Positions 3,669 to 59,456 of a stretch of DNA of 64,000 nucleotides are shown here, piece after piece. The notes under the pieces are model-generated. The model had not been told where the DNA came from. It saw only the letters and a list, made by a program, of their open reading frames with translations, and ran no database searches. The DNA is taken from IMG/VR virus record IMGVR_UViG_3300045988_087184, one strand, 5' to 3'. The position numbers were made by a program, and so were the translations under genes. Origin of the DNA: a virus. Position 1 is the stretch's first letter. Every line of letters begins with the position of its first letter.

Positions 3669-3878
3669 TTAGTCTTTTATTTTAAAAATATCAATCAACA
3701 CAAAAGCACCTAGGAATAAGAACCAGAAGCTCTTCTCTCCGTATGCCCTACTGACGTCAAATCTTACAGTCGGTACTAGGTAATAAGAACCTTTCAGAAT
3801 ATCACAGCTGAAGGCTATTATCCTCTTCTTGGTTCTGATTTCCAGACGGTCAGCACTCTTGTTTAGTCTTATTTTCAT
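3669..3878 (-). CDS. small hypothetical membrane protein (69 aa)
   Basis: Internal ATG lies 5 nt after the stop of the upstream gene. C-terminal hydrophobic segment FWFLFLGAFVLIDIF. Confidence 0.35.
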   Translation of the reverse strand: MKIRLNKSADRLEIRTKKRIIAFSCDILKGSYYLVPTVRFDVSRAYGEKSFWFLFLGAFVLIDIFKIKD

Positions 3879-3882
3879 ATAC

Positions 3883-4794: not shown

Positions 4795-4805
4795 GTTACT
4801 AATGT

Positions 4806-5465
4806 TTATCGTTTTGTCTGTAATACAGATGGTAAGTATTTCTCAGAATACTTCTTTCTCAAATACTCTATTACCTGGTCATACGAGTGAAGAAATCCAT
4901 CATTGATGAGCATAGCAACTTGGCGTTCCATACTGAACAACTCGTATTGCTTGGATTCTTCTCCGTGCTTGTTGCGCATTTCGTGCTCGTGTTCGTTAAA
5001 AACAACATAGTTTATTGCTTTTGCTATCTTGCACATAGCGGCATGCATAAATTTCTTGCTCACGATTTTGCTGATAGCAGCACCAAGCTCTTTATATGCG
5101 TCGCCGGCATCATTTCTGTATTTCAGCATCTGGTCGTATACGAACTTGATAACCTGAACCTCGAAGCGAGGATTAAGCCACATCGCAAACTTAACGAAGA
5201 GGATTGGATGCATCCAAGTTCCTCCGTTTTTTCCTCTCGCTTTTAAATACGCAGAATTTTGCGTATTAAGCTTTTCTTCTTCCATCAGAGCAGAAATAAA
5301 CTCCTTTGTGTTGTCGTTATCGAAGAATTTTGTAATCTCCTTCTTCTCTCCACTTGCTTCATTCCACTGTTTGAGCAAGTTTGTAGCATTGAACATACTA
5401 TCTTTTGTTCTTTGCTCGACCAAAAAGTTACCCATTGGTCTCTTCATTACTTGATTTGTAATCAT
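4806..5465 (-). CDS. KilA-N domain protein
   Basis: N-terminal FNATNLLKQW...GGTWMHPILFVKFAMWLNPRFEVQVIKFV pattern, typical of KilA-N. Confidence 0.75.
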   Translation of the reverse strand: MITNQVMKRPMGNFLVEQRTKDSMFNATNLLKQWNEASGEKKEITKFFDNDNTKEFISALMEEEKLNTQNSAYLKARGKNGGTWMHPILFVKFAMWLNPRFEVQVIKFVYDQMLKYRNDAGDAYKELGAAISKIVSKKFMHAAMCKIAKAINYVVFNEHEHEMRNKHGEESKQYELFSMERQVAMLINDGFLHSYDQVIEYLRKKYSEKYLPSVLQTKR

Positions 5466-8472: not shown

Positions 8473-9489
8473 TTAGTCCTCATCTGACTCGTCGTCGTCC
8501 TTATCATAGACTCCGAATAGCTTGAGGGTGTTGCTGTCAATCTCCGTCTTCCCGACTATGTAGCGCATCGTCATCTGGATGTTTGGCTTACCATTGCTAG
8601 TATGGCCCATCATGACGGCAATCTGTTCCAATGGCACGCCTTTCTTGGAGAGATTTGTGGCGAACGAACGTCTGCCGGTGTGCGAAGAAATGAAGCGGTA
8701 CTTCTTTCCGGTCTCCTCCCTTCCGGCCTTAAACACCTTCGTGTTCGCATCTATTCCGCATTCACGGCAGATGTCACGAAGAGTTCGGTTGAAGGTCATC
8801 TCGCTGATTTCGCCAGGAAGAGGTTCGACACCCGTGCCGCATACCAGGAACGGACGGAGCTTCTTGTGAAGAGGAACCCTTACCTCTGTCTTGGTCTTCT
8901 GTGCTACATACACCAGGAAATGCCCGGTATCATCGATGTTCTCGGGAGTTATCCTCTGACAATCGCTGTAGCGTGCTCCACAGAGGCATTCCATGAGGAA
9001 CATGCGCTGAACATATCTCTTCGTCTGTCCTCTTGGATTGTAATTGATGATTCTGTTTATCTCCTCATCCGAGAGATAGACGGACTGCACGGGCACGGCC
9101 TTCGTTCTGAGTATCTTTCCGAATGTAGGGCTGTTAATCTCCTTCGTCGCATCGTTCTCACGTATCACCGCCTTGATGGTGGCGCATACGGTCTTTGCGG
9201 AGTTTGGAGCATAGTTCTCCTTGATTTTCTCAAAGAGGTCACGGAGGTTGTCGTCAGTGATGTCTTTCCACAATGGCTTGTGGCCCAACAGCTCATCGAA
9301 CATTCTCACGACCTTGATGAACTTCGGATACTTCCAGATATAAGCTCCGTAGAAGGTGTTGTGCCTCCACGCGTTACCGTGATAGTCGGCGAACCAACCC
9401 TGTTTGATAGCGAGCTTGTACTTCTCCTGCTGAACAGGAGTCAACAGTCGTTCCCAGTCTCTTGTCTTGATTCTTAATTCTTCTGTCAT
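8473..9489 (-). CDS. second tyrosine recombinase
   Basis: SSHTGRRSFATNL ... MMGHTSNGKPNIQMTMRYIV (R, H, Y). Acidic tail DKDDDESDED. Confidence 0.8.
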   Translation of the reverse strand: MTEELRIKTRDWERLLTPVQQEKYKLAIKQGWFADYHGNAWRHNTFYGAYIWKYPKFIKVVRMFDELLGHKPLWKDITDDNLRDLFEKIKENYAPNSAKTVCATIKAVIRENDATKEINSPTFGKILRTKAVPVQSVYLSDEEINRIINYNPRGQTKRYVQRMFLMECLCGARYSDCQRITPENIDDTGHFLVYVAQKTKTEVRVPLHKKLRPFLVCGTGVEPLPGEISEMTFNRTLRDICRECGIDANTKVFKAGREETGKKYRFISSHTGRRSFATNLSKKGVPLEQIAVMMGHTSNGKPNIQMTMRYIVGKTEIDSNTLKLFGVYDKDDDESDED

Positions 9490-10889: not shown

Positions 10890-10909
10890 TAAGCATAAAA
10901 CGTTTGCTT

Positions 10910-12049
10910 ATGATTTCATACAAATACAAACTCTATCGCACCGATAAGACGAAGCACCTGGATAAGATGCTCCGCGAGGCTGCTTTTGTGTGGAATCATG
11001 CACTCGCGCTACAGAAACGCTACTACCGCATGTACGGCAAATATATCGGCATAAACAGAATGCGTAAGCATTTCGCAAAGCGCATCAACCGAAACCTATT
11101 GCACTCGCAGACGGTGCAGGAGATTCTTGACCGTCTCGATGACGCATATCTGCGTTTCTTTAAGCATCTGGCAGCACGACCTCCAAAGTTTAGACGGGCG
11201 AAGGATTTCTCCTCTTTTGTATTCCGACAAGGAGGTTATTCCATCAACGGGAACGTGCTGACGATAAACAGAATAAAGAAGCGTTTCAAATTCTCGCTGA
11301 GCAGACCTTGCGACGGCAAGGTTAAGACCCTCACCGTCAAGCGCAGTCCACTGGGAGAGTATTTCATCATCATGGTGCTTGATAAAGCCCCTGTCAGCCT
11401 CGGAAAGACACACAATGGTGCATCCGTAGGCATTGACTTTGGCCTAAAGACCTACATGACGATGAGCGACGGAACCACGGTTGAAAACCCGCAGTTTCTA
11501 AAGAGCGGACTGCGCCAGTTGCAGCGTAAGTCGCGGAACCTCTTGAAGTGTGTGCCAGGTTCCCATAACCGGGAACGGAAACGTCAGGATCTCGACAGAC
11601 ACCACGAGAAGGTTGTCAACCAGCGCAACGCCTTCCAGTGGCGGCTCGCCCATCAGTTATGCCGGCAGTACGACCGTATCTTCATCGAGGACCTCCAGCT
11701 CACCGGCATGACAGCCTTGTGGGGCAGGAAGATGAGCGATCTTGCACACGGTGAGTTCGTCACCAAGTTGGAGTACGTGGCTTCCAAGTATGGTGTCATC
11801 GTCCATAAGATTGACCGATTCTACCCGTCATCAAAGACGTGTACATGCGGATATGTAAACAAGCAGCTTCAGCTGAAGGATAGGCAATGGACTTGCCCCG
11901 AGTGTGGCGCAGTCCATAGCCGTGACCTTCTCGCTGCCCAGAATATTCTTCGGCAGGGCATTGCCGAATTGGAGAGCACAAGTAAGACACCTTCCACAAG
12001 GATGGCGCATGTGCGCCTGCATCCAAGAATCTCATCCCTTCAGGGGTGA
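10910..12049 (+). CDS. tnpB: TnpB RNA-guided nuclease (IS605 OrfB family)
   Basis: MISYKYKLYRT N-terminus. RuvC contexts GIDFGLK, IFIEDL, RDLLAAQNI. Zinc finger CTCGY..CPECG. Confidence 0.85.
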   Translation: MISYKYKLYRTDKTKHLDKMLREAAFVWNHALALQKRYYRMYGKYIGINRMRKHFAKRINRNLLHSQTVQEILDRLDDAYLRFFKHLAARPPKFRRAKDFSSFVFRQGGYSINGNVLTINRIKKRFKFSLSRPCDGKVKTLTVKRSPLGEYFIIMVLDKAPVSLGKTHNGASVGIDFGLKTYMTMSDGTTVENPQFLKSGLRQLQRKSRNLLKCVPGSHNRERKRQDLDRHHEKVVNQRNAFQWRLAHQLCRQYDRIFIEDLQLTGMTALWGRKMSDLAHGEFVTKLEYVASKYGVIVHKIDRFYPSSKTCTCGYVNKQLQLKDRQWTCPECGAVHSRDLLAAQNILRQGIAELESTSKTPSTRMAHVRLHPRISSLQG

Positions 12050-13275: not shown

Positions 13276-14328
13276 TTACTTCTTACACTTAGCTTTAAAC
13301 CACTCGTTAATCTTTCCCTGGATGTCGATGCCGGACTCCTTGATGAGCTGCTTGAGAACACCGAGCATTCTCCAGCCTTGTCCATCATAAGACTTAGCCT
13401 TAGATTCGAGTTCCTTCAAAGATGCTGCTTCTGACATCTTTCGTCCGCCCTTCAGGAATCTTGCTCCGTGGAACATGATGAGGTTACGCATGGTGTAATA
13501 AGAACCAGAGCCTTTGTATGCGTCAATGAACGCATCAGCCTGCTTGGTATTCCATTCGAGATGCTTGCGGTTCTTGTTGAACTTGTGAACTACTGAATAG
13601 AGCTGCTTGTATGTAGGAACAGCCGCCATCTCGTTCGCAATCTCTCTAAGAGGTGTGTAGACTTTCTTTTCCAAGTCGCTGACAAAGATATCCTTGTTCT
13701 GAAGACGTACGTAAGGATTACCCTTGCAGGTATGCTTGTATGTCTTCTTCTCGTTCCCATCCTTGTCTTTCTTGACATTGTAGATAAGATTGTCATCCAC
13801 GTACTTGCGGAGCTTGCTGATGTAGTCAGTAGCCATGTCGCTGGCAACGTCGCCGTTAAACCATCGGTTTCTAGCACAGACATTGTCAAGGTCTCCGTGC
13901 TCAGACATCTTTACCTGAGCATAGAGTTCGTTCTCCAACATGCGCCACTGATACTCGTAGCCCTTGCGCTGCAATACCTCATTGAACGTTAGCTTGTCTG
14001 TCTCCATCTGTCTGAGCATGTGGAACATCTGCGACATCACCCAGCGGCGGAACAGCTTCCAGTTGCTTACGTATCCACCCTCGACAATCTTCTTGCCTAC
14101 CGCATCAATGGTTGCATCGTCCATATCAACAGGGACCGCTGCACCATTCTCGATCTTGACAAGCTGGTCGTCACCGAGAGGGAAGTACTTACTTACGTCA
14201 ACGCCTGCTGCCTTAAGAGCTTCGAGACGCATCTGCGCCTTTGTCTTCTTACCGGTAGCTGCTGTAGCCTCTACGTTCTTTGTTACGATGTTCAAGTTCT
14301 CACCAGTGATTGTTACAATCTGCTTCAT
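13276..14328 (-). CDS. hypothetical protein (350 aa)
   Basis: Long ORF with the cassette box upstream. Confidence 0.7.
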   Translation of the reverse strand: MKQIVTITGENLNIVTKNVEATAATGKKTKAQMRLEALKAAGVDVSKYFPLGDDQLVKIENGAAVPVDMDDATIDAVGKKIVEGGYVSNWKLFRRWVMSQMFHMLRQMETDKLTFNEVLQRKGYEYQWRMLENELYAQVKMSEHGDLDNVCARNRWFNGDVASDMATDYISKLRKYVDDNLIYNVKKDKDGNEKKTYKHTCKGNPYVRLQNKDIFVSDLEKKVYTPLREIANEMAAVPTYKQLYSVVHKFNKNRKHLEWNTKQADAFIDAYKGSGSYYTMRNLIMFHGARFLKGGRKMSEAASLKELESKAKSYDGQGWRMLGVLKQLIKESGIDIQGKINEWFKAKCKK

Positions 14329-14385
14329 AATTCTATAAAATTTAAAATGGTTTGTAATAAATTATTTAACTCTAGTGGATGAGGC

Positions 14386-14838
14386 TTACGCCCCACCCTT
14401 GTTTGGCTCAATCCAGTCTCTGAGGATAATCAGGTCCTTATCGTTCTTGGAACACCAGAACCACGTTCCCCATGAGTTGTCCCACCAGAGGTTGCCTCTT
14501 AGAAGCTGGACCAGTACGTATAGCTCCAGCTTGCATCGAGCTACCTCTCTCCGCTCTCCGTACATCATATCTTCGTCTGAGAGCTCTTTCTCAGGCAAAT
14601 CCTTGAAGTAGTAGCGGCGATGAGATTCTGAACGCTCAGACGGCACAGAATGCTTGTACGCTGCATATCTCTGCTCGATGCCTACAAATACAACCTCTGG
14701 TGTAAGGTAAGGCGTGTCCTTCGGCTTGTCTTCCTCGGACATTACTACCTTGCCGTTCACTCTACATGTTCTCTTCTGGAAGTTGATGGTGAACTTAGCA
14801 CCATTCTCAACTGCATTAATAATCTCGTCGTATGTCAT
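14386..14838 (-). CDS. hypothetical protein
   Basis: 150-aa ORF with the cassette box upstream. Confidence 0.6.
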   Translation of the reverse strand: MTYDEIINAVENGAKFTINFQKRTCRVNGKVVMSEEDKPKDTPYLTPEVVFVGIEQRYAAYKHSVPSERSESHRRYYFKDLPEKELSDEDMMYGERREVARCKLELYVLVQLLRGNLWWDNSWGTWFWCSKNDKDLIILRDWIEPNKGGA

Positions 14839-14871
14839 AATTCTTAAAATGTTGGTTAATAGGGATAGTGC

Positions 14872-15126
14872 TTATTCTAGCACTATCAGACTGACTTTTT
14901 CGAGTTCACCGTTACTAAGTACATTATCCTCGTGCCCGAAGTGGATATAGAACTTATCTCCGTTCGCCCACTCCATCGCACGCATATACAGCCAGTGTGC
15001 CTCCTCGATAGAGAATCCGTCTGCGCTTACAGAATCAAGCATCTCGCCCATGCAAACTACGGATTCCAAGTACTCTTTCTTGATTTCATCAAGCTTCTTT
15101 AGTAATTTACTGTCCATAATTCTCAA
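14872..15126 (-). CDS. hypothetical protein
   Basis: 84-aa ORF with the cassette box upstream. Confidence 0.55.
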   Translation of the reverse strand: MRIMDSKLLKKLDEIKKEYLESVVCMGEMLDSVSADGFSIEEAHWLYMRAMEWANGDKFYIHFGHEDNVLSNGELEKVSLIVLE

Positions 15127-16302
15127 TATATTGGTTAATAGGAGTGCGCTCAGAGAATCTGTTGCGTAACTGTAAAGTCTTGATTGATACTGTATTTGAG
15201 TCCTGACTGATCCAGGTAATCACCTGGATGCTCAGGATGATTGAAACAGTATTATACAATCTATTCTCCTTGCGCACCATTCGGCTCGCAATAACCTAGA
15301 CTTATCTCATGTATTATGTTGCATGGATATATGTTCTCGATTAGACCCCGTGTTTGGATACGGTCGTCGATATCGATAGACATCGACGACGGTATTCCAC
15401 TCACGGGGTATTAAACCTCATACTCTTGATAAGTCGTGATGCAATTCACGTTGGTTGTTGTAGGTACACTCATAGGCCTATTGCTTTCCTATAATCAACT
15501 GATACGAACCAGATGGCTTACGCGGGTTAATATTTAACCTAAGGATTAACCCGCGTTATTTGCAAGCTGGTTGGTAAATTACAGCCTCCTCGTGTACCTC
15601 GTTTGGCAATAACGTTGTCTTCATCTGAGAGCGTGACACGTAGCTATAGCAGCTTGATTTGAGAGCTGTTATAATCGCCGGATGAAGCTGGGGATTCCCA
15701 GCATTAGCCGGCGAGTACAACAGGCACTCATAAATTCACTCTCCTCTGAAGACTACCCTCGTGCTTGGGTGATTCTCTGACCGATGGCTCGGCACAATAC
15801 TTTATGTTTCTGATTTGACACAGGATTCGCCAGAATTCAGGATCCAGGTCACCGCTCATATTTATGACGGTTACCAGGATCCAGAACTCTGGTTAAGAGA
15901 CCTGTTGCATAAACTTCAGCCATCCGTCAGGGATTGGTGGTGTGCGCCACCTGTAAAAGTCATACGGACTGACACATTTCTGTACTTCGTTGATGAGTTA
16001 CGCCTTGTGCGTCATACGAGGGCCCCGAGGAGTCTCAAGTTGCAAACTTGGACTACTCGGTTCCCTCAGATGATGTTATAGAGGCGTCGCCTGAATTAGT
16101 CCGTCCTTCTCCTACGTCCGTGTGCTCGGTTACAGAGTCTGCCGGTCGGAAGATACTGCGCATGGCTATATCAGATTGATAATATCCTGGTGGAGAGGAT
16201 CGCAGGACCGTCTCCATTCGGAGACAGGCCCGCGATCGTGCGAGACCGGATGTTTAAAACATTCTTCTTCATTCCGGCAGTTCCTTGCGCTAGGATGCTC
16301 AT
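15127..16302. ncRNA. 1.18-kb ORF-free, highly structured region immediately 3' of the RT gene (strand unresolved)
   Basis: Many perfect helices: 15187-15252, 15346-15408, 15521-15555 (extended by 15507-15512/15567-15572), the long-range pair 15462-15469/15592-15599, 15677-15712 and 16198-16237. No operon-strand ORF. Confidence 0.5.
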
Positions 16303-17568
16303 CTACAGTATATTCACCAAAGTGTTGTACGCTGCCCTGCTCGTTCGCAAGGCATTCTGGGCACAACCGATTGATAGATACCCCTTGATATCGCTCTCTG
16401 TCTTACTCCTGTTGGCTTTCACGTTCCTGCCACGGCCTCGGTCTATACAACCGATAGCCTGAGTCTTTACATATCCGAGACCTCCGACCTTTCTCTTGCC
16501 TGTCTTGACCGCACGGATGCAGTCCATGACAAAGGTGTTGAGCTTGTCGATGTCCTCTTTCACGTTTATGACCGGAAGAACCTGAGTAGCCCAGGAGTAA
16601 TCGCAGTACCCCTTGTAGAGATACCTGTTTACTGCATTGATGGCTTTCGTCATCGTGGTGTCACGCTTCTTTATCGTCCTCTTCTCAATCTCCTTTTGGA
16701 AGGTCTTGATACGTGTGGACGACAGGGAGATATTGTGACCCTTGATTGAATATCCCAAGAACTTGAACCAGTGATTAGCGTCAAGATACTCAACCTTCTT
16801 CGGATTGAGCGTCATCTGCATCTTCTCCAGCTCGCTCTTCAGGATATTCATGGCTTTCTCGTAGTCCTTGCCCACGAAGAGAATGTCATCAGAATAGCGG
16901 ACGTAATATCCGTCCAGATTCGACAACATCTCATCGATATGGTACAGAACCACGTCTGCCAGCCATGCAGCAACAGAGCATCCCTGCTTTAGGGACTGAT
17001 ACTTCTTGCAGAGGTTATTGTTCTCGTCAAAATACAGGTCTGTGTGATAGTAGTCACGAATGACATCTATCAGCGCAGATTTTCCGAATTTCTCCTCTAC
17101 TCTGTCAAATGCCCAATCGACGAATCGTATTGGTACATTGTCAAAGTACTTGGATAAGTCGGACTTGAATCCGATGATTTTTCCCTCTGCTGAGTATATT
17201 ACATGAGAGACATCTTGTACAACACGGCCGCAGCCAATACCCTTTTGGTATGACGTACAGCGTGGATGCACCATCTCTGGCATCAGCTCGAACAGGAGGT
17301 CGTTTGCTATACTCAGGAGGATTCTGTCCACATTTTCATTCACGTAGACCGTACGGAAATCTCCGTTGTCTTTCGGAATCTTTGCTGTGTGTGGCGGCAT
17401 TATCTTGTAATTGCCGCTCTTGATTCTCTGATACATAGCCAGACGAGCCTTCGGCGTAGTCAGCTGATACATTACTGCTTTGTTCATGTCCTTGAATAAG
17501 CCTTTCTCGATAGCATACTGCCATCTGGCTTTCTCGAAGAACATGCTTAGGATTCTGTCTTCATTCAT
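16303..17568 (-). CDS. reverse transcriptase, non-DGR (group-II/retron-like palm)
   Basis: Motifs KIPKDNGDFRTVYV, SYQKGIG, FKSDLSKYFDNV, LKQGCSVAAWLADVVL, YVRYSDDILFVG, LNPKKVEY, FKFLGYSI. Confidence 0.85.
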   Translation of the reverse strand: MNEDRILSMFFEKARWQYAIEKGLFKDMNKAVMYQLTTPKARLAMYQRIKSGNYKIMPPHTAKIPKDNGDFRTVYVNENVDRILLSIANDLLFELMPEMVHPRCTSYQKGIGCGRVVQDVSHVIYSAEGKIIGFKSDLSKYFDNVPIRFVDWAFDRVEEKFGKSALIDVIRDYYHTDLYFDENNNLCKKYQSLKQGCSVAAWLADVVLYHIDEMLSNLDGYYVRYSDDILFVGKDYEKAMNILKSELEKMQMTLNPKKVEYLDANHWFKFLGYSIKGHNISLSSTRIKTFQKEIEKRTIKKRDTTMTKAINAVNRYLYKGYCDYSWATQVLPVINVKEDIDKLNTFVMDCIRAVKTGKRKVGGLGYVKTQAIGCIDRGRGRNVKANRSKTESDIKGYLSIGCAQNALRTSRAAYNTLVNIL

Positions 17569-44925: not shown

Positions 44926-47900
44926 ATGGCAGGTGGAAATTTAGGTGACTTGTGGTTTGACTTAAACATTAAAGACAGCAATGTGAGGTCAAAACTGAAA
45001 GAAATTTCAGAAGGACTTTCGGAGTTGGATCTAAAAACTGAGTCTGGAAGAAAGTCTGCTGAGAAGTTATTTAAGAACTTTAACAGAGAGAATAGCAAAG
45101 AAATCGCTGAGGATTTTAAAAATATAGCGGCCCAAATGGGCATTCAGGCTCAGGAAACTGCAAATCTCAGCAAAAGACTGAAGGAGTTATCGGAACTAAA
45201 AACAGACATTCTTCGTAGAGACAAGGAACAATCCGAGCACGGTAACTTTGTTGCGATGAAAAATGAAGCGCAGGCTGCACTTGATTTAACAAATAGATAC
45301 AAAGAACTTGCCAAGTTAAAAGAAGATATCTTAAGACGCGACAAGGAAATGGATGCTCAAGGGGCTTTCGTGACGCTTGTTAACGAATCGAAACAGGCGC
45401 AGGAACTTAATGAGCGTTACAGGGAAATGCAGCAACTGAAATCCGCGATTTTGGAGCGAGACAGACAGTCAACCGAGCACGGCAACTTTGTTGCGATGAA
45501 AAATGAAGCGCAGGCTGCACAGGAGTTAGCTGTCAGGGAAAGAGAACTCGCTGAGTTGCGAAATGCTATCGTACGCCGTAATGAAGAAATGATTGCTGCC
45601 GAAAATAGGCTAAGAGAAGCGACGGAGCGAACTAACCAGGCTAGAAGAGAAGCAATTTCTGTATCTAGGAAACAGGCAGAATCCCTTGTACGTGATAGAG
45701 CTAAGGAACTTGAAGCACAAAGACAACAGATTCAAGGTTTATTTGGAAGTGGAAAGAATGTATTAAGTACGCAAGAGTTAATGCAACTTCAACAGGCATT
45801 CTCGCAAATTACGAAAGAGCTTAATACATCGCGCAGTGCGATGAATAATCTTGGTAGTTATTCTATCAAAGATTTATTCTCTATAGGCAGAGGAACAAGC
45901 GAATATACTCCACTGATAAACAGTATGCGAACTGTAATTGATCAAAAACAGGAAGCGATAAACCTTGAGCGAAAACATCAAGAAGAGATAACGAGAACGG
46001 CTGCAAAGGCACGAAACGACCTTGCAGCAGCATTCGCCGGAGCAAACGCTGAAGCGAAGAAGATGCAATCCATAGTCGGAGACATCAAGTCTCTCTTCTT
46101 ACAGGGAGGTATTGTCTTTGGCGCGCAGCAATTCTTTAATTCAATCGTACAGACCGGTGGTGAGATTGTTCAGCAGCATGTTGCGTTACGCTCCATCCTT
46201 GGTGATGTACAGAAGGCTGACGAGCTGTTCGCTCAGACTCAGCAGCTTGCGTTGCAGTCTCCATTCAAGTTTGGAGAGCTGAACCGAGATGTAAAGCAGC
46301 TGGCTGCATTCGGAGTTGAGGCGAATGACTTGTATGATACCACAAAGCGACTTGCTGATATCGCATCAGGTCTTGGCGTGTCTTTCGAACGACTTGGCTT
46401 GGCTTATGGTCAGGTTAAGGCCCGTTCTTGGCTTGACGGTAAGGAATTACGCCAGTTTGCTTACGCTGGACTTCCACTCTTACAGAGAATTACGGAGCTT
46501 TACAATTCAGAAGGAAAGAACGGAAGGAACAATTATACACAGGCAGATGTCAAGAAGATGATTACTGCTAGACAAGTAAGCTTTGAGGATGTCCAGAAAG
46601 TGCTTTGGAAGATGACGGATGAAGGCGGTCAGTTCTACAATATGCAGTTCGTCTTATCAGAGACATTACTTGGTCGCTGGAACAAGCTCATTGATGCCTG
46701 GGATATTATGCTAGGAAAGTTCGCAGAAGGCAAGAATATCGTCGGAGGTACTTTCTCGTTCATCATAAATAGAGTAACCGACCTTGTGTTAGCTTTGGAC
46801 AAGCTGTCTCCTGCCCTTCTTTCATTCGGAGCGGTGTTTGCTGCAAGGAAGCTCGGCGGTATGGCTTATTCTAAGATGGGTATTGGATCACTTGCTAAGA
46901 GTTATACTCAGCAGATGAATGCCCAGTTAAAGTCTTATGCTATCGAACAGCAGCAACTTGTTGTGGAAGGAGAGATTACGCAGAAGATTGCCCAGCAGAA
47001 TGTATTCAAGAAAGCTGCTATTCTGTCGGAAAAGCAATCGCTTGTCGCGAGTTACAATAGGGCTGCACTCGAAGGAAGAATGTCCGTATTGCAGATGCAA
47101 CGAGCAGTCAAGGAAGGCTTGGTTTCTAAGGAGATAATTAGTCAGCTCGCATTGATGGGACAAATAACCGCCAAACAAGAGCAAATCATCTTGAATGGAG
47201 GCAGAATGTCTGCCGTATGGAGCATGACAACTTCAAAGATTGGAGGATTTGTCAACGCCATCGGTGGCTGGTGGGGAATCGGCATTACGACTATCACTTC
47301 ATTGTTGATGGGGTACAATCAATGGTCAAGTCGAGTAAAGGAAGAAGAAAAGACGTTGATTGATGGAGCTAAGCAGAAATCCAAAAGTTACGGAGATTTT
47401 CTGTCTGGATTAGGTCCAAAAGATGCGTCCAACCTTTCTTCGCAAGTTGACTCGATGAAGGAGATTCTGAAAAGTTCAGATGACTACACGGATTCTATCA
47501 AGCAGCAGGTTGAAAGCGCAGGAAGCCTGTCAAAACAATACGACATACTCAAAGAAAAAATTGAGGATGCGAAAAAAGCGAATGATGGCTTAGCTGATAA
47601 ATATGGAGTTATAACGAATAACGCAACTTCAGCAACAGGTCTTGTTAGCGACAACCTATTCGATATGATCGGAGCTGATACTCCACAATGGTTACAGTGG
47701 TTGAATGGACTCACGAACGATGATATTGCAAAGAATGTGGAGCAAGCACAAGAATCTCTATCTAAGTTCCAGGTGATGTTCGACGAGCTCGACTCTAGTA
47801 CAAAGGCCAAAATGGAGGATTTTATCCGGTCTTTGATGGAAAGCAACGAAGAGCTAGCAAACCAAATCAAGGGTCTGCCCCTTACTGAGCAGATTAGAAT

Positions 47901-50900
47901 GCTTGCGGCTATTGGCGGAGATGATTGGGAAAAATTTGTCGACAAGTTTGCAAATGGAAGCAAGGAGACAGAAAACTGGTTAAAGGAACTTGCGGAAAGA
48001 GCGAAGGATTCTAGCGATGATGTGTCCGAAATAATGTATGACGACGTGCCGAGAGGACTTGAGTCCGTCAGAAAACAGCTCGGATTGTCTCAAGATCAAT
48101 TCCGAACGTGGGCAAAACGAAACCCTGAGATTTTCGCCAGTATGATGGATAAGATGGCACAGAAGGCAAATATTACAAGTAAAACCATCTTGTATTATTT
48201 TCATTCGGCTATCAGTAAGCTCATGGATATGAACTTTTGGCCAGGCGACAGTGGTAACGGAAAGAAAGGAAAGCCTTCTTACAACTCTGGCGTGAACACT
48301 CCTTTCTCTGAGATTATAAGGCAAAGACTTCATAAGAACGGAACTTTCACTGGAAACAAAAAGAAAGGTAAGTTTTGGACGAGAGAGGTTGATAATGCGT
48401 TAAGACAAGTGCAAGACCAGTCTTTCGAGACCACAGGTGAGAATATTCGTAAGGAGCTCAAGGCTGCGAGAAACGAACTTGACACGATAGTCAATGGAAA
48501 AGTAAGCAAGAATTCTTCTGAGTACAAGAATGCTAAACACAAGTACGATTTGTGGAAAGCTATCGCTGACGCAGGTTACATATCTGACGATCTTGGAAAG
48601 AACAAGGTTACGGGTAACTTTGGGAAAGGCAAAAACAAGAATGGTCGCGAAGAAGACGCTGAGCTCAAGCGTTTACAGGAGCGTCTAAGCAGTCTTAAGT
48701 CTGCAAGACAGATGTACCAGAAGTACAAGAGCATCATGCCGAACGAAGAGGCAAAGAAGAAGACTTACAATCTCTTCCCAGAGGTTACCGGTCTTAATCT
48801 TGACGACTATCAGAAGGCTGTTCATTCTCTCCTTGAAGGATTCAGCATAAATACCACAGAGAGAAAGAAGTTCCAGACATCCATCTATCGCGAGGTCGCA
48901 GAGTGGCTCTTCGATGAGAAGGATAAAAAGGAGTATGAAAAGAAGGCGGCTGATTTCAGCGAGTCTATGAACAAACTGTCTGAGCGATGGGATTTGTATA
49001 AGAGTCTTCTTGAAAAAACTGGTAGCAAATTCTTTGCTGAGTCGGCATGGGTTGACGCATTCCAGATGGATGACAAGGTACAATCTCTTATGGACGAGTA
49101 TTACGCTCACTACCATGAGATATTCAATCTTCAGGATTCTCTAAGCATGACTGACGGAGAAGCTAAGGAAAAGCTTAAGCTACCAAATCAGTACGAAGAG
49201 TGGAAAAAGATTACACAACTCCTCCGTGGTAATTATGTTAAGTCTTTGCAAGATGCCGCCGATATCATCGAGAAGACAGAAGATTACGAGGACAAGATTC
49301 TTAAGATTCGACAGGATTACGATAAACTTATCAAGAAGACGAATGATCCTGGTATCAAGGCGAGATATGAGATTCAGAGAGACAAGGAGATTGGTCAGGT
49401 TAAACTCGACAAGTTCAAGAACTCTTCTGATTATCTCAATTTCTACGGAGCCATCGTCTCTCTCGGCATGGATAAGGCTCAGACTATCGGGGCTAGAATC
49501 AGGCAGAATATCAACGAGGCTCTGCAAAACGGAGCTATCGATGCGAGAGAGTACGCCAAGGAAATCAAGCAGCTTGATGAGCAGTTATCGAAGCTGACGA
49601 GTCCAAAGAAGACTTTCCTCAATGGAGGTCTGAAGGGAATGGCTGAGCAGAAGATTTCTGATGCCAGCGAGCAGATGACCATCGCAGCAAGTAAAATTGC
49701 TGAAGGCAAGAAGGTTCGCGAACTTGGCCTCAAAATGGGAGACGAAAACTTCATCAAGCGTGGGGGCAGCATGATTGCCAGCGGAAAGGCTATGATGAAG
49801 GCTGCTGAGATTCTGTTTAAGGACGGAACAAAAGCAAAAGAGTCTCTTGATAAGTTTGCTAACGTAGTAAGCATTATCGACCAGAATGTCCAGGGAATGA
49901 GTGAAGCATTCAATGACATCAAAGAGACTGCTTCCCTTCTCGGAGCTGACACTGAGTCTGATGGATGGCAGGACGCTTCTGCGTTCTTCGAGACATTCTC
50001 CGGCATGTCAAGTTCACTGTCAAAGGTGGTAACAAGCGCGGAGTCCGGCAACGTTGGTGGAATCCTTGCCGGTGTAACTGGTATATTTACCTCACCTATA
50101 AAGGCGTTTGCAAAGGCTCATGATGCCAAGCTCGACCGACAGATAAAGCTTGCAGAGAGACAGCTGAATGAGTTAAAGAACTTATCTAGTAATATTAGTT
50201 CTGTCATCGAGAAGACCCTTGGAGGAATCTATTCTTACGAAAGGTCTTCTGATACAACTAAAAAGCTCAACGATGTAAAGAATGACTATAAGGCTTGGGA
50301 GGCTTATTCCAAGACCGATACGGGCAAGGCTTTCTTCGGTGGCAAGAACTTAAGCCGCTACAGCAAGGAGACCTATGATACTGTGATGAAGACAGAGACG
50401 AATCCTTCCGCATACGCAGACCAGCTCGCCCTACTCCACGCTCAGGAAGACGAGTTGAGAAAGCAGAGGCAAGCCGAGGAGGACAAGAAAAAGACGGATA
50501 AGGATAAACTCGCCGACTACGACCAGCAATTCAAGGAGATGCAGTTGCAGATTAAGACGTTCGCACAGGACTTTCTGAAAGACGTTTACTCCATCGATAT
50601 GAAGAGCTGGGCAAGTACTCTTACAGATACTATCGTAAGCGCATGGGCTAAAGGCGAGGATGCGGTAGATGCCTACAGGGAGAAGGTGAAGGATATGGTT
50701 CGCGATGTTACGAAGAATATCGTAACTCAGAAAATCATGGAAAAGGCGCTCGAAAAACCTCTAGAATGGCTTACGTCCGTTCTTGACAAGAAGGGTCAGC
50801 TCGATGAGACCGACATGGATAAGTTTGCAAAGCTCCTTAATGAAGTTGGAGAAAAGGTAGCTCCTCAAATAACCGGACTCTTTGATGCAATGAAGAATAA

Positions 50901-51216
50901 TGGATTTGATATGAGAGAGGACGGAAGTTCATCTGCTACCAACTCTGTTAAGAGTATCACAGAGGAAACTGCTGATCTCCTAGTCAGTTATGTAAACAGC
51001 ATACGTCTTGATTTGTCTGTTGTTCGTGAGATTCAAGGGAAATTCTTACCTGAGATGAGTGAGATTGCAAAGTCCCAGTTGACTCAGCTTAACCTGATTG
51101 CTCAAAACACCTTGCGCAATGCTGATGCAGCAGAGAGAATCGACAAGACTGTATCGGAGTTGAACGATAACTTCAACAGAGTTATCAATGGTACGAAATC
51201 TTTAAAAATGAAATAA
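44926..51216 (+). CDS. tape measure protein
   Basis: 2096 aa, largely helical/coiled-coil, following the frameshifted chaperone. Confidence 0.85.
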   Translation: MAGGNLGDLWFDLNIKDSNVRSKLKEISEGLSELDLKTESGRKSAEKLFKNFNRENSKEIAEDFKNIAAQMGIQAQETANLSKRLKELSELKTDILRRDKEQSEHGNFVAMKNEAQAALDLTNRYKELAKLKEDILRRDKEMDAQGAFVTLVNESKQAQELNERYREMQQLKSAILERDRQSTEHGNFVAMKNEAQAAQELAVRERELAELRNAIVRRNEEMIAAENRLREATERTNQARREAISVSRKQAESLVRDRAKELEAQRQQIQGLFGSGKNVLSTQELMQLQQAFSQITKELNTSRSAMNNLGSYSIKDLFSIGRGTSEYTPLINSMRTVIDQKQEAINLERKHQEEITRTAAKARNDLAAAFAGANAEAKKMQSIVGDIKSLFLQGGIVFGAQQFFNSIVQTGGEIVQQHVALRSILGDVQKADELFAQTQQLALQSPFKFGELNRDVKQLAAFGVEANDLYDTTKRLADIASGLGVSFERLGLAYGQVKARSWLDGKELRQFAYAGLPLLQRITELYNSEGKNGRNNYTQADVKKMITARQVSFEDVQKVLWKMTDEGGQFYNMQFVLSETLLGRWNKLIDAWDIMLGKFAEGKNIVGGTFSFIINRVTDLVLALDKLSPALLSFGAVFAARKLGGMAYSKMGIGSLAKSYTQQMNAQLKSYAIEQQQLVVEGEITQKIAQQNVFKKAAILSEKQSLVASYNRAALEGRMSVLQMQRAVKEGLVSKEIISQLALMGQITAKQEQIILNGGRMSAVWSMTTSKIGGFVNAIGGWWGIGITTITSLLMGYNQWSSRVKEEEKTLIDGAKQKSKSYGDFLSGLGPKDASNLSSQVDSMKEILKSSDDYTDSIKQQVESAGSLSKQYDILKEKIEDAKKANDGLADKYGVITNNATSATGLVSDNLFDMIGADTPQWLQWLNGLTNDDIAKNVEQAQESLSKFQVMFDELDSSTKAKMEDFIRSLMESNEELANQIKGLPLTEQIRMLAAIGGDDWEKFVDKFANGSKETENWLKELAERAKDSSDDVSEIMYDDVPRGLESVRKQLGLSQDQFRTWAKRNPEIFASMMDKMAQKANITSKTILYYFHSAISKLMDMNFWPGDSGNGKKGKPSYNSGVNTPFSEIIRQRLHKNGTFTGNKKKGKFWTREVDNALRQVQDQSFETTGENIRKELKAARNELDTIVNGKVSKNSSEYKNAKHKYDLWKAIADAGYISDDLGKNKVTGNFGKGKNKNGREEDAELKRLQERLSSLKSARQMYQKYKSIMPNEEAKKKTYNLFPEVTGLNLDDYQKAVHSLLEGFSINTTERKKFQTSIYREVAEWLFDEKDKKEYEKKAADFSESMNKLSERWDLYKSLLEKTGSKFFAESAWVDAFQMDDKVQSLMDEYYAHYHEIFNLQDSLSMTDGEAKEKLKLPNQYEEWKKITQLLRGNYVKSLQDAADIIEKTEDYEDKILKIRQDYDKLIKKTNDPGIKARYEIQRDKEIGQVKLDKFKNSSDYLNFYGAIVSLGMDKAQTIGARIRQNINEALQNGAIDAREYAKEIKQLDEQLSKLTSPKKTFLNGGLKGMAEQKISDASEQMTIAASKIAEGKKVRELGLKMGDENFIKRGGSMIASGKAMMKAAEILFKDGTKAKESLDKFANVVSIIDQNVQGMSEAFNDIKETASLLGADTESDGWQDASAFFETFSGMSSSLSKVVTSAESGNVGGILAGVTGIFTSPIKAFAKAHDAKLDRQIKLAERQLNELKNLSSNISSVIEKTLGGIYSYERSSDTTKKLNDVKNDYKAWEAYSKTDTGKAFFGGKNLSRYSKETYDTVMKTETNPSAYADQLALLHAQEDELRKQRQAEEDKKKTDKDKLADYDQQFKEMQLQIKTFAQDFLKDVYSIDMKSWASTLTDTIVSAWAKGEDAVDAYREKVKDMVRDVTKNIVTQKIMEKALEKPLEWLTSVLDKKGQLDETDMDKFAKLLNEVGEKVAPQITGLFDAMKNNGFDMREDGSSSATNSVKSITEETADLLVSYVNSIRLDLSVVREIQGKFLPEMSEIAKSQLTQLNLIAQNTLRNADAAERIDKTVSELNDNFNRVINGTKSLKMK
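45184..45560 (+). repeat. in-frame ~120-nt (40-aa) tandem repeats in the tape measure N-terminus
   Basis: 3.5 copies. 45233-45280 and 45473-45520 are identical except for 1 nt. Confidence 0.8.
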
Positions 51217-55949: not shown

Positions 55950-55985
55950 TAAAATGATTTACGAATTTTAAAATAATTGGAAGTT

Positions 55986-57296
55986 ATGAATAAGAATTTA
56001 GGAACGGCAGATGTTGCATCATCCGTACAGCAGACGGATAGTGTACTTGCAGAAATTGGTGGTGCTATGAGAAGAGTAAAGGTGAAGGATTTATCAAGAA
56101 GCCTTAACCTTTCCATTACATCACCAGAGGTATACGCATACGGCATTGAGTTCGATGTAACCGTAAGCTCTACGGCTGCAACGAGAATCGGCAACATGAG
56201 CATGCACAGAACCTTACCAGTACAGACTTTGATGAAGGGATGCTTGCTCGATGATGATGGTAACGTGGTTGACTATCTCGACCCACAGGACTGGACTAAG
56301 GCTACACGTGATGGAAGCCGAGGTCAGGTTATGGTTGAGCTGCCAGAGTATTACGAGAAGTTTGAGACGGATGGTAACAAGCGTAGGGCATGGATGAGCC
56401 TTGAACCTTTGGCAGGTTTCCGTAAAGTTCCGAAGCGTTACGTGAGTGCCTATCAAGCCTACGTAAAGAATAACAAGCTCTGCTCTATCGCTAGCGTGTT
56501 GGCATCAGCCAATATCAGCCGTACAGGATTCCGCAATGCGGCAAGAGCGAGAAAGACGGGTAGCGCAGAATGGAACTGCCATGTATATGACATTCAGAGA
56601 GAACTCTATTGGCTCTTTGCTATTGAATATGCCCAGTTGTCTTGTCAGACTAATTACAATGCCGCTCTGACTACCGAAGGTTATCATCAGGGCGGTCTTG
56701 GTAGTGGTGTTATTTGTGATGGAAATAAGTGGAATACCTATAACGGATATTACCCATTTGTTCCTTGCGGCATGACTGATAGCCTTGGCAACCGAAGCGG
56801 TGTTGTTACCTACGACACTGGTACGAAGAATGGTGTTACTCTCGGTAAGGTAAGCGTTAACAGATACCGTGGTATCGAGTGCCCATTTGCTCATGTATGG
56901 CAGTGGACTGATGGAATCAATGTAGAGGTGCAGCCAGGCGATAGTGGCGTTAGCAAGGTATATGTATGCCGTGACCCTAAGAAATTCTCTGATACAGGAT
57001 ATAACGGATATACCTATGTCGGCAACGAAGCAAGAACGGAAGGTTTTGTTACACAGATTACCTTTGGCGAATATGGTGACATCACGGCGAAGGCTGTTGG
57101 CGGTAGCGATAGTAGCTATCATGGTGACTATCATTACACTAACATACCTACAGCTACTACTCTACGTGGCGTTCGCTTTGGCGGTCCTGCGAATTTCGGT
57201 TCGATCTGCGGCTTCGTTTTCTCGACTTCGACTTACGTTCCCTCGGCTACGTCTGCGGCTATCGCCTCTCGCCTTTGCTTCCTTCCTGCTGCATAG
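55986..57296 (+). CDS. DGR target protein (variable C-terminus, probable receptor-binding protein)
   Basis: VR occupies the last ~45 codons. Confidence 0.8.
   Translation: MNKNLGTADVASSVQQTDSVLAEIGGAMRRVKVKDLSRSLNLSITSPEVYAYGIEFDVTVSSTAATRIGNMSMHRTLPVQTLMKGCLLDDDGNVVDYLDPQDWTKATRDGSRGQVMVELPEYYEKFETDGNKRRAWMSLEPLAGFRKVPKRYVSAYQAYVKNNKLCSIASVLASANISRTGFRNAARARKTGSAEWNCHVYDIQRELYWLFAIEYAQLSCQTNYNAALTTEGYHQGGLGSGVICDGNKWNTYNGYYPFVPCGMTDSLGNRSGVVTYDTGTKNGVTLGKVSVNRYRGIECPFAHVWQWTDGINVEVQPGDSGVSKVYVCRDPKKFSDTGYNGYTYVGNEARTEGFVTQITFGEYGDITAKAVGGSDSSYHGDYHYTNIPTATTLRGVRFGGPANFGSICGFVFSTSTYVPSATSAAIASRLCFLPAA
57164..57281 (+). repeat. DGR variable repeat (VR)
   Basis: 118 nt aligned to TR. 19 differences fall at TR adenines and only 1 falls at a non-adenine. 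Confidence 0.9.
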
Positions 57297-57321
57297 TCGA
57301 AGCGACACGGCTCGTCTCACG

Positions 57322-57356
57322 CCCTATGCCGCCCGCCATTTATTGGCGGCATAGGG
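57322..57356 (+). other. 12-bp hairpin downstream of VR
   Basis: CCCTATGCCGCC pairs with GGCGGCATAGGG. Confidence 0.7.
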
Positions 57357-57395
57357 TGGATTAAAAATTAGGTTTAACATTAAAATAATAGAAAT

Positions 57396-57752
57396 ATGGC
57401 AGACAATACAAAACAAGACGACGGAAGTCTTGCATTCTTGAACATTCCTCGCAATGAGAACAGCCGTTCATTCAACTGCAAGGAAGTAAGTCAGAGCAAA
57501 TTGGTGAATACATCATTTTGGCTGATTGATTTCATGGAGGATATTCCGACAAGATTCTCTAAGCAGAAAGGCACGAAAGGTCAGACCTTGGTGCTTGTGA
57601 AGCGAAATCTTGAAGACCCAGAGAGTGAAGCAATGAAGTTCTTCACTGGCTCACAGGATATTCTCTACATCTTGCAGGAGATAAAGAAACGGAATGCCTT
57701 TCCTCGCAAGGTGACAATGCGAGGTAACGGAAACCGATATTTCGTAGAATAA
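57396..57752 (+). CDS. DGR accessory-position protein (not obviously Avd-like)
   Basis: 118-aa ORF between VR and TR. Confidence 0.6.
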   Translation: MADNTKQDDGSLAFLNIPRNENSRSFNCKEVSQSKLVNTSFWLIDFMEDIPTRFSKQKGTKGQTLVLVKRNLEDPESEAMKFFTGSQDILYILQEIKKRNAFPRKVTMRGNGNRYFVE

Positions 57753-57777
57753 AAGATATTAAGGTTGATGATTCCTA

Positions 57778-57895
57778 ACGTGGCGTTCACTTTGGCGGTA
57801 ATGCGAATAACGATTCGAACTGCGGCTTCGTTTACTCGAATTCGAATAACGTTCCCTCGGACACGAATGCGAATATCGCCTCTCACCTATACTTC
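57778..57895 (+). repeat. DGR template repeat (TR)
   Basis: Noncoding copy of VR carrying 28 adenines, many of them in AAC/AAT units. Confidence 0.9.
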
Positions 57896-58032
57896 TAAGG
57901 TTAAAAATTATGTATGGGAATCATAACCGCACCTCTTGGTGAAAAATTTAGGAACTCAGAAACGTGTTGGTAGGTATCAGAAATATCGCTGATAGTCGAA
58001 GACTCGGAGTAAGGAAGCAAAATAGCAAAAAG

Positions 58033-59073
58033 ATGAAAAGGATTGGTTATCTCTACGAGAAAATCATATCAATGGATAATCTCAGATTAGCTGACGAAAA
58101 GGCTAGGAAGGGAAAGAGAAATACCTATGGTGTGCGAGTGTTCGATAAGAATAGAGAGGAAAATCTGTTGAAGCTGCATGAGATGCTGAAAAATAAGACG
58201 TTCAGAACATCAAAGTATGACGTATTCACCATCTATGAACCGAAGGAGAGAGTGATATACAGATTACCATACTTTCCCGACAGAATCGTTCACCATGCGA
58301 TACTGAATATCCTTGAACCTATATGGCGCAGCGTATTTACGTACAACACATATAGCTGCATCAAGGGCAGAGGAATAGAAGGATGCGCAAGAAGGGTTGG
58401 TGAGATTATAAGAAGGCATCCTATTGACAGACCTCTGTATTGCTTGAAGATAGACATCGTAAAGTACTACCCTAGCATCGACCATGAGGTTATGAAGAGA
58501 ATTATCAGACGGAAGATAAAGGACGCTGATGTGCTGAATCTTCTTGACGAGATTATAGATTCTACAGATGGATTGCCGATAGGTAACTATTCAAGTCAGT
58601 ATTTGGCTAATCTTTATCTTGCTTACTTCATGCACTGGGTGAACGAAGTGCTGAAAGTCGAGAGTACAGAATATGCAGATGATATAACATTCTTTGCGGA
58701 AAATAAAGAAGTATTGCATAAAGTTCGCAAAGCTATCAAATGCAAGCTCGAAGGAGAATTGAAGCTAAAGATTAAAGAAAATTGGCAGATATTCAAAATC
58801 GGTATAAACAGATACGATAAGAGCGGTCGTGCATTGGACTATGTAGGCTATCAGTTCTTCCGCAAGCAGAAACTTATGCGTAAGAGGACGAAGCAGAACC
58901 TATGTAGGGAAATGAAAGCCGCAAGAAAGAAAGGAATCAAGGAGGATGCACTGAAGATGAGGATAAGCCCTTGGCTAGGGTGGACGGCTCACAGCGATAG
59001 CAGACATCTGTTGGAGAAGATAGGTGCGTTCCACGATATACATAATTATAATTTTAAAAAGATTGCGATATGA
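58033..59073 (+). CDS. DGR reverse transcriptase
   Basis: MKRIGYLYEKIISMDNLRLA N-terminus. Hallmark LPIGNYSSQYLANLYL. EYADDITFF. Confidence 0.9.
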   Translation: MKRIGYLYEKIISMDNLRLADEKARKGKRNTYGVRVFDKNREENLLKLHEMLKNKTFRTSKYDVFTIYEPKERVIYRLPYFPDRIVHHAILNILEPIWRSVFTYNTYSCIKGRGIEGCARRVGEIIRRHPIDRPLYCLKIDIVKYYPSIDHEVMKRIIRRKIKDADVLNLLDEIIDSTDGLPIGNYSSQYLANLYLAYFMHWVNEVLKVESTEYADDITFFAENKEVLHKVRKAIKCKLEGELKLKIKENWQIFKIGINRYDKSGRALDYVGYQFFRKQKLMRKRTKQNLCREMKAARKKGIKEDALKMRISPWLGWTAHSDSRHLLEKIGAFHDIHNYNFKKIAI

Positions 59074-59456
59074 AAGTAATTTACGACAATGAGCCTTCTG
59101 TATTGGAGGCAGTAGGAAACGGAAGTCACCGTTATCACTACGACATCAAGGCGGTGAAGGCAGAATCAACAGAGAAGTCTTCGGGTGCGGAATCAAGAAC
59201 TCAGTACGAGTGCCAGGAAGTGATTGTATGGGAACCCATCACGTCTAATAAGATTACCGAAGCGGTCATTGCTGATAAGTGGGATGGTAATCAGGAACAG
59301 AAGCTCATCAACGAGTATAATGCTATTCAGCTTGGCATCACTACTGATAAGGCAGAGATAGCCATCAAGACTGCTGCTTATAAGGAGTTCCTTTCAGAGC
59401 GAGTAAGATTGAAGGCTATCGTTGATGACGACTGCAAGACACTCGGAATCGAGTAA
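59070..59456 (+). CDS. hypothetical protein
   Basis: 128-aa ORF overlapping the RT stop. Confidence 0.6.
   Translation: MKVIYDNEPSVLEAVGNGSHRYHYDIKAVKAESTEKSSGAESRTQYECQEVIVWEPITSNKITEAVIADKWDGNQEQKLINEYNAIQLGITTDKAEIAIKTAAYKEFLSERVRLKAIVDDDCKTLGIE

Follow-up and report, generated by a model that had tools for sequence, protein, structure and literature searches.

Positions 55986-59073 of the viral record IMGVR_UViG_3300045988_087184 (IMG/VR; the whole stretch of 64,000 nt that was analysed is referred to here as the window) hold a tail protein gene, a small open reading frame (ORF), a non-coding repeat and a reverse transcriptase (RT) gene, all on the same strand. The surrounding sequence is that of a tailed temperate phage or prophage, with genes for integrases, primase, large terminase, portal, major head protein and tape-measure protein. 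The tape-measure protein (2096 aa, gene at 44926-51216) is followed by a 1213-aa tail gene and by tail genes that lead up to the 436-aa protein at the left end of the region. An earlier note on this DNA, made from the sequence alone, had described a complete diversity-generating retroelement (DGR) here, in which a template repeat (TR) is copied by the RT into a variable repeat (VR) at the end of a target gene. The gene order is as that note gave it (target, 118-aa ORF, TR, RT), all the components it named are present, and the comparative data described below show that the family is being diversified. The features of the region are as follows.

55986-57296, + strand: target gene, encoding a 436-aa tail protein with the VR at its C-terminus (phrog_5302 'tail protein', 5.8e-115)
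57164-57261, + strand: diversified part of the VR, with 15 codons that contain TR adenines (codons 397-426); 16 of 25 TR adenines differ in the window
57262-57281, + strand: invariant 3′ end of the VR, like an initiation of mutagenic homing (IMH) element, TCGCCTCTCGCCTTTGCTTC, encoding ..ASRLCF
57322-57356, no strand assigned: GC-rich inverted repeat with a perfect 12-bp stem (9 G:C pairs) and an 11-nt loop
57396-57752, + strand: accessory gene, encoding a 118-aa basic protein of isoelectric point 9.3 (phrog_19665, 2e-34)
57762-57767 and 57768-57777, + strand: conserved motif AGGTTG, then the 5′ arm of a helix, ATGATTCCTA, which pairs with 57915-57924
57778-57895, + strand: TR, the last 20 nt of which (57876-57895) are an IMH*-like end
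57915-57924, + strand: 3′ arm of the helix, TGGGAATCAT, the 10 nt just before the RT-17 motif
57925-58032, + strand: structured spacer RNA, Rfam RT-17 (RF03020), 55.1 bits against a gathering score of 40.4
58033-59073, + strand: DGR RT, 346 aa (PF00078, 4.9e-14; phrog_1423, 4.5e-113)

The VR (57164-57281) and TR (57778-57895) form an ungapped direct repeat of 118 nt, and no further TR-like copy or second VR was found in the window on either strand. The two copies differ at 20 positions, 19 of them at the 28 adenines of the TR and one at its 90 other bases (Fisher exact p = 3e-14). A recount gave the same gapless alignment and the same numbers as the earlier note, and also the same adenine bias, on which that note had made its reading depend. 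The adenine mismatches comprise seven A>C, seven A>T and five A>G changes. With the 20-nt 3′ end left out, 16 of 25 adenines differ compared with 1 of 73 other bases (p = 3e-11). The sole mismatch at another base (TR C57862, VR T57248) is a third-position C/T difference beside a mutated adenine, and is synonymous.

Not every one of the 19 differences can be credited to mutagenesis: three are fixed differences at the 3′ ends of the repeats (see below) and one is a change in the TR. The latter is A57813, an adenine found, apart from the window, in just a few of the nearest relatives (L001, L190, L192 and L193). Most other close TRs have G at this position, every VR compared has G or C and never adenine, and the corresponding residue, Gly405, is kept in all 16 proteins sampled from the sequence cluster of the target. 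Judged from these alignments, the mismatch is a change in the TR and not in the VR. The TR itself is intergenic and non-coding. When read in the frame of the VR, 26 of its 28 adenines occupy codon positions 1 or 2, nine of the codons are AAY (Y, pyrimidine), and no adenine substitution is able to create a stop codon, so that about 10^13 or more protein variants can be reached without truncation.

DGR-type RTs are marked by the sequence (I/L)GxxxSQ in motif 4 and by a YxDD catalytic motif. Both are intact in the 346-aa protein, as LPIGNYSSQ (58573-58599) and YADD (58672-58683), and the protein matches PF00078. Its best matches are DGR RTs of crAss-like phages (among them that of LMMB, 42%) and RTs of Bacteroides phages, at 40-48% identity, together with Faecalibacterium phage RTs; Bordetella phage records are also among the 160 that matched. 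The alignment with the Hankyphage RT reaches only over residues 1-322 of the latter (29% identity, E 2e-32), and an exact-sequence look-up of the RT returned no record.

The VR occupies codons 394-432 of the 436-aa ORF (39 codons, followed by a 5-codon tail). The target protein has 2458 homologues; the nearest named one, at 93% identity, comes from a Prevotella sp. metagenome-assembled genome, and remoter relatives (53-57% identity) are encoded in genomes of Alistipes, Phocaeicola, Prevotella and Mediterranea. The host of the phage is probably a Prevotella. A Pfam search and a PDB profile search with the target gave nothing useful. Its AlphaFold model has a predicted template modelling (TM) score of 0.78, with VR residues at a predicted local distance difference test (pLDDT) score below 50. 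When the model was compared with the PDB by Foldseek, the sole meaningful match was TaqVP (5vf4), a Thermus DGR variable protein (E 1.5e-3, probability 0.94, TM 0.26-0.29). The VR ends in SRLC, an ending described for VRs of the CLec3 class (PMC7290462). The structure prediction proposed in the earlier note and the SRLC ending thus hint that the VR domain may have a C-type-lectin fold, to which the low TM score and the low pLDDT of the VR residues lend weak support. By analogy with known DGRs, the target is a putative receptor-binding protein.

Every defining DGR feature that was tested is found in the element. With high confidence, 55986-59073 can be regarded as a genuine DGR of a temperate Bacteroidales phage, diversifying 15 variable codons at the C-terminus of a 436-aa tail protein. 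DGRs of this kind are already known and are common in gut phages, and the element is a further member.

Variation of the repeats among related phages

Viral contigs were scanned with the target protein, which returned 145 relatives, and 80 loci were kept. Automatic detection gave a VR/TR pair in about 60 of these, with mismatches almost exclusively at adenines of the downstream copy. Among close relatives the TR is 110-118/118 identical. In seven of them it matches that of the window at 110-117 of 118 positions, and every VR is different, at TR-adenine positions. The 118-aa accessory protein occurs in identical form in at least 155 blocks of the collection, and ten metagenome contigs encoding it were chosen for closer comparison. 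Their TRs are 0-4 positions off that of the window, and nine of the ten have a VR unlike the window's, each of which departs from its own TR at 16-22 adenines and at no other base. The VR was therefore still being diversified after these near-identical phages had parted. The proteins of the target cluster (P0121, at least 90% identity, 2108 members) show the same: 16 sampled sequences gave 16 different VR peptides, with a mean entropy of 2.06 bits at the 15 TR-adenine codons, compared with 0.08 for the remaining codons of the VR and 0.12 for the protein outside it. The earlier note had proposed a search for VR heterogeneity; run here between samples and contigs, it shows a VR that varies at TR adenines and a TR that stays constant. 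At the level of the family, this pattern points to ongoing mutagenic retrohoming, and the element of the window may likewise be, or recently have been, active, as the earlier note suggested.

The same comparison locates the end of the mutagenised segment. VR ends across the family all read TCTCGCCT(T/C)TGCTT(Y), with T in all lineages but L015, and TR ends are nearly all TCTCACCTATGCTT or TCTCGCCAATGATT, with adenines that were never seen in any VR. The last three adenine mismatches of the window (TR 57885, 57889 and 57891) have the same base in the VR of every relative, and the three codons concerned have zero entropy. Because they are identical in all relatives, these mismatches are fixed differences between the repeat ends and not products of diversification. 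They would be the equivalent of the IMH and IMH* of Bordetella phage, a function assigned by analogy. Diversified sites extend as far as 57261, and fixed TR/VR differences begin at 57271, so that information transfer stops between the two positions. In two relatives (L047 and L063) the 3′ region of the TR is VR-like and has lost several adenines (e.g., GGCTGCG compared with GAATACG elsewhere), and L047 has just two VR/TR mismatches. The TRs of these loci may have undergone VR-to-TR conversion or decay.

One variant, L006 (5265-5500 of its sequence; compare window positions 57396 and ~58990), is without the accessory gene, TR, RT-17 and all of the RT but its last 24 codons. The loss is a single deletion between two copies of GCAGACA, located at the accessory start codon and near the end of the RT gene, and both the target and the downstream genes are kept. 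The VR-like end of this locus has drifted to 78/118 identity with the TR of the window, non-adenine changes included.

Not all observations agree with an element that is active in the window itself. Its repeats carry the one non-adenine mismatch (57248/57862), and the tenth of the contigs described above (L192, ERZ1311037 NODE_67), although from another assembly, is the same as the window in VR, TR and flanking 1 kb. Added to these are the lineage-specific G-to-A change at TR position 57813, where all 16 cluster proteins keep glycine, and the split, truncated or partly matching RT genes of three relatives (L195, at 4174-5175, L009 and L039), which represent either recent RT inactivation or assembly frameshifts and still accompany 10-16 adenine-only VR/TR mismatches. 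The cassette in this genome could then be a frozen relic, belonging to a family that once diversified but no longer retrohoming itself. We consider this improbable, given that the RT ORF is unbroken and has its two catalytic motifs, the TR retains 28 adenines, RT-17 and the helix flanking the TR are intact, and nine of the ten contigs with the identical accessory protein carry a different VR. A further explanation would be that the two repeats arose by ordinary duplication and were shaped by diversifying selection or gene conversion, and that the RT has nothing to do with them. No specific observation favours this, beyond an unrelated UG27-type RT elsewhere in the window (16303-17568), which shows that RT genes occur for other reasons. 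The adenine bias is seen again in over 60 independent loci, variation does not extend to any other class of base, and the TR copy is non-coding, conserved and always adjoins this RT and the RT-17 RNA; an ordinary duplication is already refuted.

RNA structures, accessory protein and downstream hairpin

The TR is enclosed by a helix that closes between 57768-57777 and 57915-57924 and that recurs, in many sequence versions, in 37 of 38 non-redundant relatives. In a register-fixed alignment, 93% of cells are paired, compared with 42-60% after a shift of the partner by 1-3 columns; the register was picked after the duplex was known, which makes the shifted controls the fairer comparison. All nine pairs change on both sides, and the covariation score is 0.695 compared with 0.36 after shuffling (0 of 500 shuffles were as high). 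The RT-17 motif lies within the 137 nt that separate the TR from the RT start codon. It was found at the equivalent position in 14 of 16 relatives, is gone from the cassette-less L006 and falls below threshold in L029. In an alignment of 36 spacers, helices P1 and P2 of RT-17 covary; the first hairpin shows compensatory changes (UA/CG 29:7, GC/AU 20:16), and one pair of the outer helix is seen in four Watson-Crick types.

A different Rfam motif, RT-3, is found at the equivalent place in Hankyphage and in phage BS-TP4. Because RT-17 and RT-3 share this position, the 'RT-n' motifs, orphans in Rfam, would seem to be spacer RNAs of DGRs. In BS-TP4 (L163, 3750-3913; PQ571277.1), RT-3 overlaps the first 74 nt of the annotated coding sequence for a 496-aa RT (3840-5330), so the start deposited for this RT is probably too far upstream.

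The 118-aa protein encoded between target and TR has 604 close homologues, with 36 invariant residues, and no match in Pfam, NCBIfam, PADLOC or PDB sequences. Avd, the accessory protein present in about 74% of DGRs, is a four-helix-bundle pentamer. The predicted structure of the 118-aa protein (mean pLDDT 68) is beta-rich with two helices, and not a four-helix bundle; by this prediction and the lack of any database match, it is not Avd. Foldseek comparison of the model with the PDB gave nothing significant (a weak scatter of OB-fold proteins, E >0.4), and the top matches among viral protein models were RT proteins (E 4e-6, TM 0.63). The accessory ORF of the earlier note is therefore present between target and TR, but it is not an Avd homologue, and its family is otherwise found as a C-terminal domain of RTs.

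The connection to RTs runs through a subset of relatives (L027-type, with a VR-TR gap of about 223 nt) that carry a divergent accessory homologue downstream of the RT (106 aa, 29% identical, BLASTP 7e-12). Matches to this homologue were found in 30 phage records from Bacteroides and Phocaeicola. Those in Hankyphage (BK010646.1) and BS-TP4 are in frame within the annotated RT and form its last 107-109 residues (tblastn 2e-8 for the Hankyphage RT). A profile search of 1.84 billion representative proteins with the accessory family gave 390 members; at least 13 of the top 150 matches are proteins of 430-583 aa that end in the domain, and all nine of the long matches that were tested have an N-terminal RVT_1 domain. 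These long fusions emerged solely in this exhaustive profile search, a word-indexed search with the L027-type protein having returned free-standing close relatives only. The family thus takes three forms: fused to the RT (Hankyphage, BS-TP4), free upstream of the TR (window) and free downstream of the RT (L027-type loci, Bacteroides phage LoVEphage).

From these alignments and profile matches, the accessory protein is most likely a free-standing version of the C-terminal RT domain and a partner of the RT. It may also stand for an unrecognised class of DGR factor, a detachable RT C-terminal domain that replaces Avd in Avd-less Bacteroidales phage DGRs and that would probably keep the RT in place on its RNA (the helix around the TR and the RT-17 or RT-3 spacer) or on the target DNA; to this tentative proposal we give slightly less than even credence. 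Two caveats apply. The homology between the accessory protein and the fused domain is transitive, via the L027-type homologue: tblastn of the window protein against the GenBank phage collection gave no match at E up to 1, and profiles compared directly show a weak match (E 8e-4, probability 24%). Further, crAss-like DGRs with related RTs carry no detectable accessory homologue, and so the protein is not needed by all RTs of the clade. No account of it was found in the DGR literature, in a search that was not exhaustive (PMC5758913, PMC6199706, PMC7290462, PMC8143477, PMC12135933, bioRxiv 10.1101/2024.11.15.621889).

The GC-rich inverted repeat (57322-57356) begins 26 nt past the target stop codon, and 40 nt beyond the point where VR/TR homology ceases. 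The nine closest relatives (L001-L009) have conserved it, and in L008 a G:C pair has been replaced by A:T through a compensatory change. Strong GC-rich hairpins of unrelated sequence lie 24-41 nt after the VR in about 20 of 49 non-redundant relatives, and none in the rest. No T-run follows the hairpin of the window, and an intrinsic-terminator scan made no call. The experimentally defined DGR hairpin has a stem of 7-10 bp and a 4-nt GRNA loop, its size and sequence being critical, and inverted repeats have been reported downstream of the VR in most DGRs, 4-34 bp away (PMC3240598). In L006 (~5303-5340) the hairpin is retained, and its loop is the exact reverse complement of that in the window (AATAAATGGCG compared with CGCCATTTATT). 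The segment between the inverted repeats has been inverted, as expected of cruciform formation or of recombination between the arms.

Both the accessory gene and the hairpin follow the target closely, and each can be explained without reference to retrohoming. A small ORF just downstream of a tail-fibre gene is in the classical position of a fibre chaperone, and the 118-aa ORF, directly downstream of the target, could be a tail-fibre assembly chaperone or some other tail-module protein with no part in the DGR. Its absence from crAss-like DGRs with related RTs would agree with this, and co-occurrence cannot separate the two readings, since the gene accompanies the target family as well as the RT in 72 of 72 informative loci. 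What does separate them is that the gene follows the RT, and not the target, in L027-type loci; that its homologues are fused to RTs in Hankyphage and BS-TP4, and in Hankyphage the target is an unrelated protein of ~2200 aa (PMC6199706); that the long profile matches carry RVT_1 domains and the best structural matches are viral RT proteins; and that L006 lost the accessory gene with the TR and RT yet kept the target. On these grounds a chaperone is unlikely, and a partner of the RT is preferred. The case of the hairpin is more evenly balanced. The earlier note had placed it where DGR target-recognition hairpins are described, and the 12-bp stem 26 nt after the stop codon is indeed there, but with its 11-nt loop and its distance of 40 nt from the VR it does not fit the experimentally defined structure, whose 4-nt GRNA loop BPP-1 critically requires (PMC3240598). 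Adenine-only VR variation is also seen in the half or so of related lineages that lack a comparable hairpin, and L006 retains its hairpin despite the deletion of the DGR. Such findings, and the position shortly after a stop codon, would suit a transcript 3′-end or stability element, or a terminator, of the target gene, to which we allow nearly an even chance. The lack of a T-run or terminator call speaks against it, as do the recurrence of GC-rich hairpins 24-41 nt after the VR in many lineages, the compensatory change in L008 and the inverted repeats reported downstream of most VRs. The hairpin may, by analogy, be a functional equivalent of the DGR target hairpin.

Relation to known DGRs and genome setting

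The element resembles the prototype DGR of Bordetella phage BPP-1 (mtd-avd-TR-brt) in the order of its parts (target, small basic accessory gene, TR, structured spacer RNA, RT), in the location of the VR at the 3′ end of a tail gene whose product is, in the window putatively, a receptor-binding protein, and in its adenine-specific mutagenesis. Also shared are an invariant 3′ end of the VR, unlike that of the TR (IMH versus IMH*), and an inverted repeat downstream of the VR. It differs in that the accessory protein is not Avd, and is predicted to be beta-rich instead of a four-helix bundle; the hairpin has a 12-bp stem and 11-nt loop, compared with an 8-bp stem and GRNA tetraloop in BPP-1; the IMH-like element is not a (GC)14 tract; and the RTs are distantly related. 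Lineage-3 DGRs are generally without Avd (PMC5758913), so its absence does not exclude the element from the DGRs.

It is with these Avd-less 'lineage 3'/CLec3 DGRs (Wu et al. 2018, PMC5758913), such as that of crAssphage LMMB (PMC7290462), that the closest similarities are seen. They too have no avd, they include the nearest RTs, their VRs end in SRLC(F), their hosts are Bacteroidales and their target is a tail protein. LMMB-type cassettes consist of target, TR and RT, without an intervening gene or accessory homologue, whereas the window has a conserved 118-aa gene between target and TR. The element fits best among the Avd-less lineage-3 DGRs of Bacteroidales and their phages, a tentative placement from the lack of avd, the SRLC ending and RT similarity; the additional gene is foreign to the lineage-3 architecture as described.

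Hankyphage (Bacteroides phage p00, BK010646.1) is likewise a temperate Bacteroidales phage with TR, structured spacer and RT in that order, and the accessory family and a homologous RT core (29% identity) are both present. Its accessory domain is residues 328-434 of the RT and not a separate gene, its spacer RNA is RT-3 and not RT-17, and its target of ~2200 aa (PMC6199706) contrasts with the 436 aa of the window target. In Bacteroides phage LoVEphage (OY725593.1), a 439-aa 'tail protein' is followed by an RT and then by an ORF of the accessory family; in this case the accessory ORF comes after the RT, which is annotated with a short length of 271 aa and has overlapping ORFs behind it. At this locus none of the Rfam RT motifs scored above threshold. 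LoVEphage and the other phrog_5302 loci probably represent the target family and cassette type of the L027-type relatives.

Megablast of the cassette against the GenBank phage collection gave no match, and there is no close DNA relative in that collection. The ORF at 59070-59456 (128 aa; phrog_11557, 3.4e-42) overlaps the stop codon of the RT gene and follows the RT in every relative. In L027-type loci its counterpart is lengthened to 272 aa, with a weak match to CBM_5_12. No similarity could be detected between the ORF of the window and the DUF4376 protein encoded after the Hankyphage RT. The ORF probably encodes a tail component, and is not counted as part of the element because the DGR-less L006 retains it. 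A 16-nt AT-rich motif, AAYWTTAAAAWRATWG, occurs at 55964-55979, 57376-57391 and 59050-59065, directly preceding the start codons of the target, the accessory gene and ORF 59070-59456, and is probably a common translation-initiation or leader sequence. A sigma-70 promoter scan was run on the region, the sigma-70 consensus being uninformative for Bacteroidales.

The first 12 kb of the window contain two tyrosine-integrase-like ORFs and an insertion sequence (IS)-type transposase (phrog_506, 9e-95), at 262-1440, 8473-9489 and 10904-12049, and the window may include the end of a prophage or a mosaic of mobile elements. Near this integrase and transposase end is a second, unrelated RT system (13276-17568, - strand). 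Its 421-aa ORF (16303-17568) matches the PADLOC model RT_UG27 (3.4e-224), and the ORFs at 14386-14838 and 13276-14328 match RTas346 (7.9e-59) and RTas337 (1.6e-113), both of them models associated with defence reverse transcriptases. By these model matches, the genes are a candidate UG27-type defence RT cluster.

Proposed mechanism and significance

A transcript would span the TR-flanking helix (57768-57777 paired with 57915-57924), the TR and the RT-17 spacer RNA. The 346-aa RT would bind this RNA, most likely with the 118-aa basic protein, whose place in related elements is taken by the C-terminal domain of the RT itself. It would then copy the TR into cDNA, with random nucleotides put in opposite template adenines, and the cDNA would replace the VR up to, and excluding, the invariant 20-nt IMH-like end (57262-57281). 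This scheme is modelled on BPP-1, from which we infer that cDNA synthesis would be primed in cis, that the cDNA would be integrated, that the downstream hairpin may contribute, that the accessory protein may bind the RT or its RNA, and that the target would act as a receptor-binding protein.

As a DGR the element is no surprise. It is a well-resolved example, with a whole family of phages (hundreds of public contigs) showing the DGR signature, and with a boundary of mutagenesis that could be mapped by comparison to the interval between 57261 and 57271. The RNA around the TR, defined by covariation, connects the 'RT-n' orphans of Rfam with the spacer RNAs of DGRs. The accessory protein, or the corresponding RT domain, is a concrete and testable candidate for the cofactor that would stand in for Avd in the cDNA synthesis of Avd-less DGRs. 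The closing helix and RT-17 suggest that the RNA architecture of the BPP-1 ribonucleoprotein has been kept in the Avd-less lineage.

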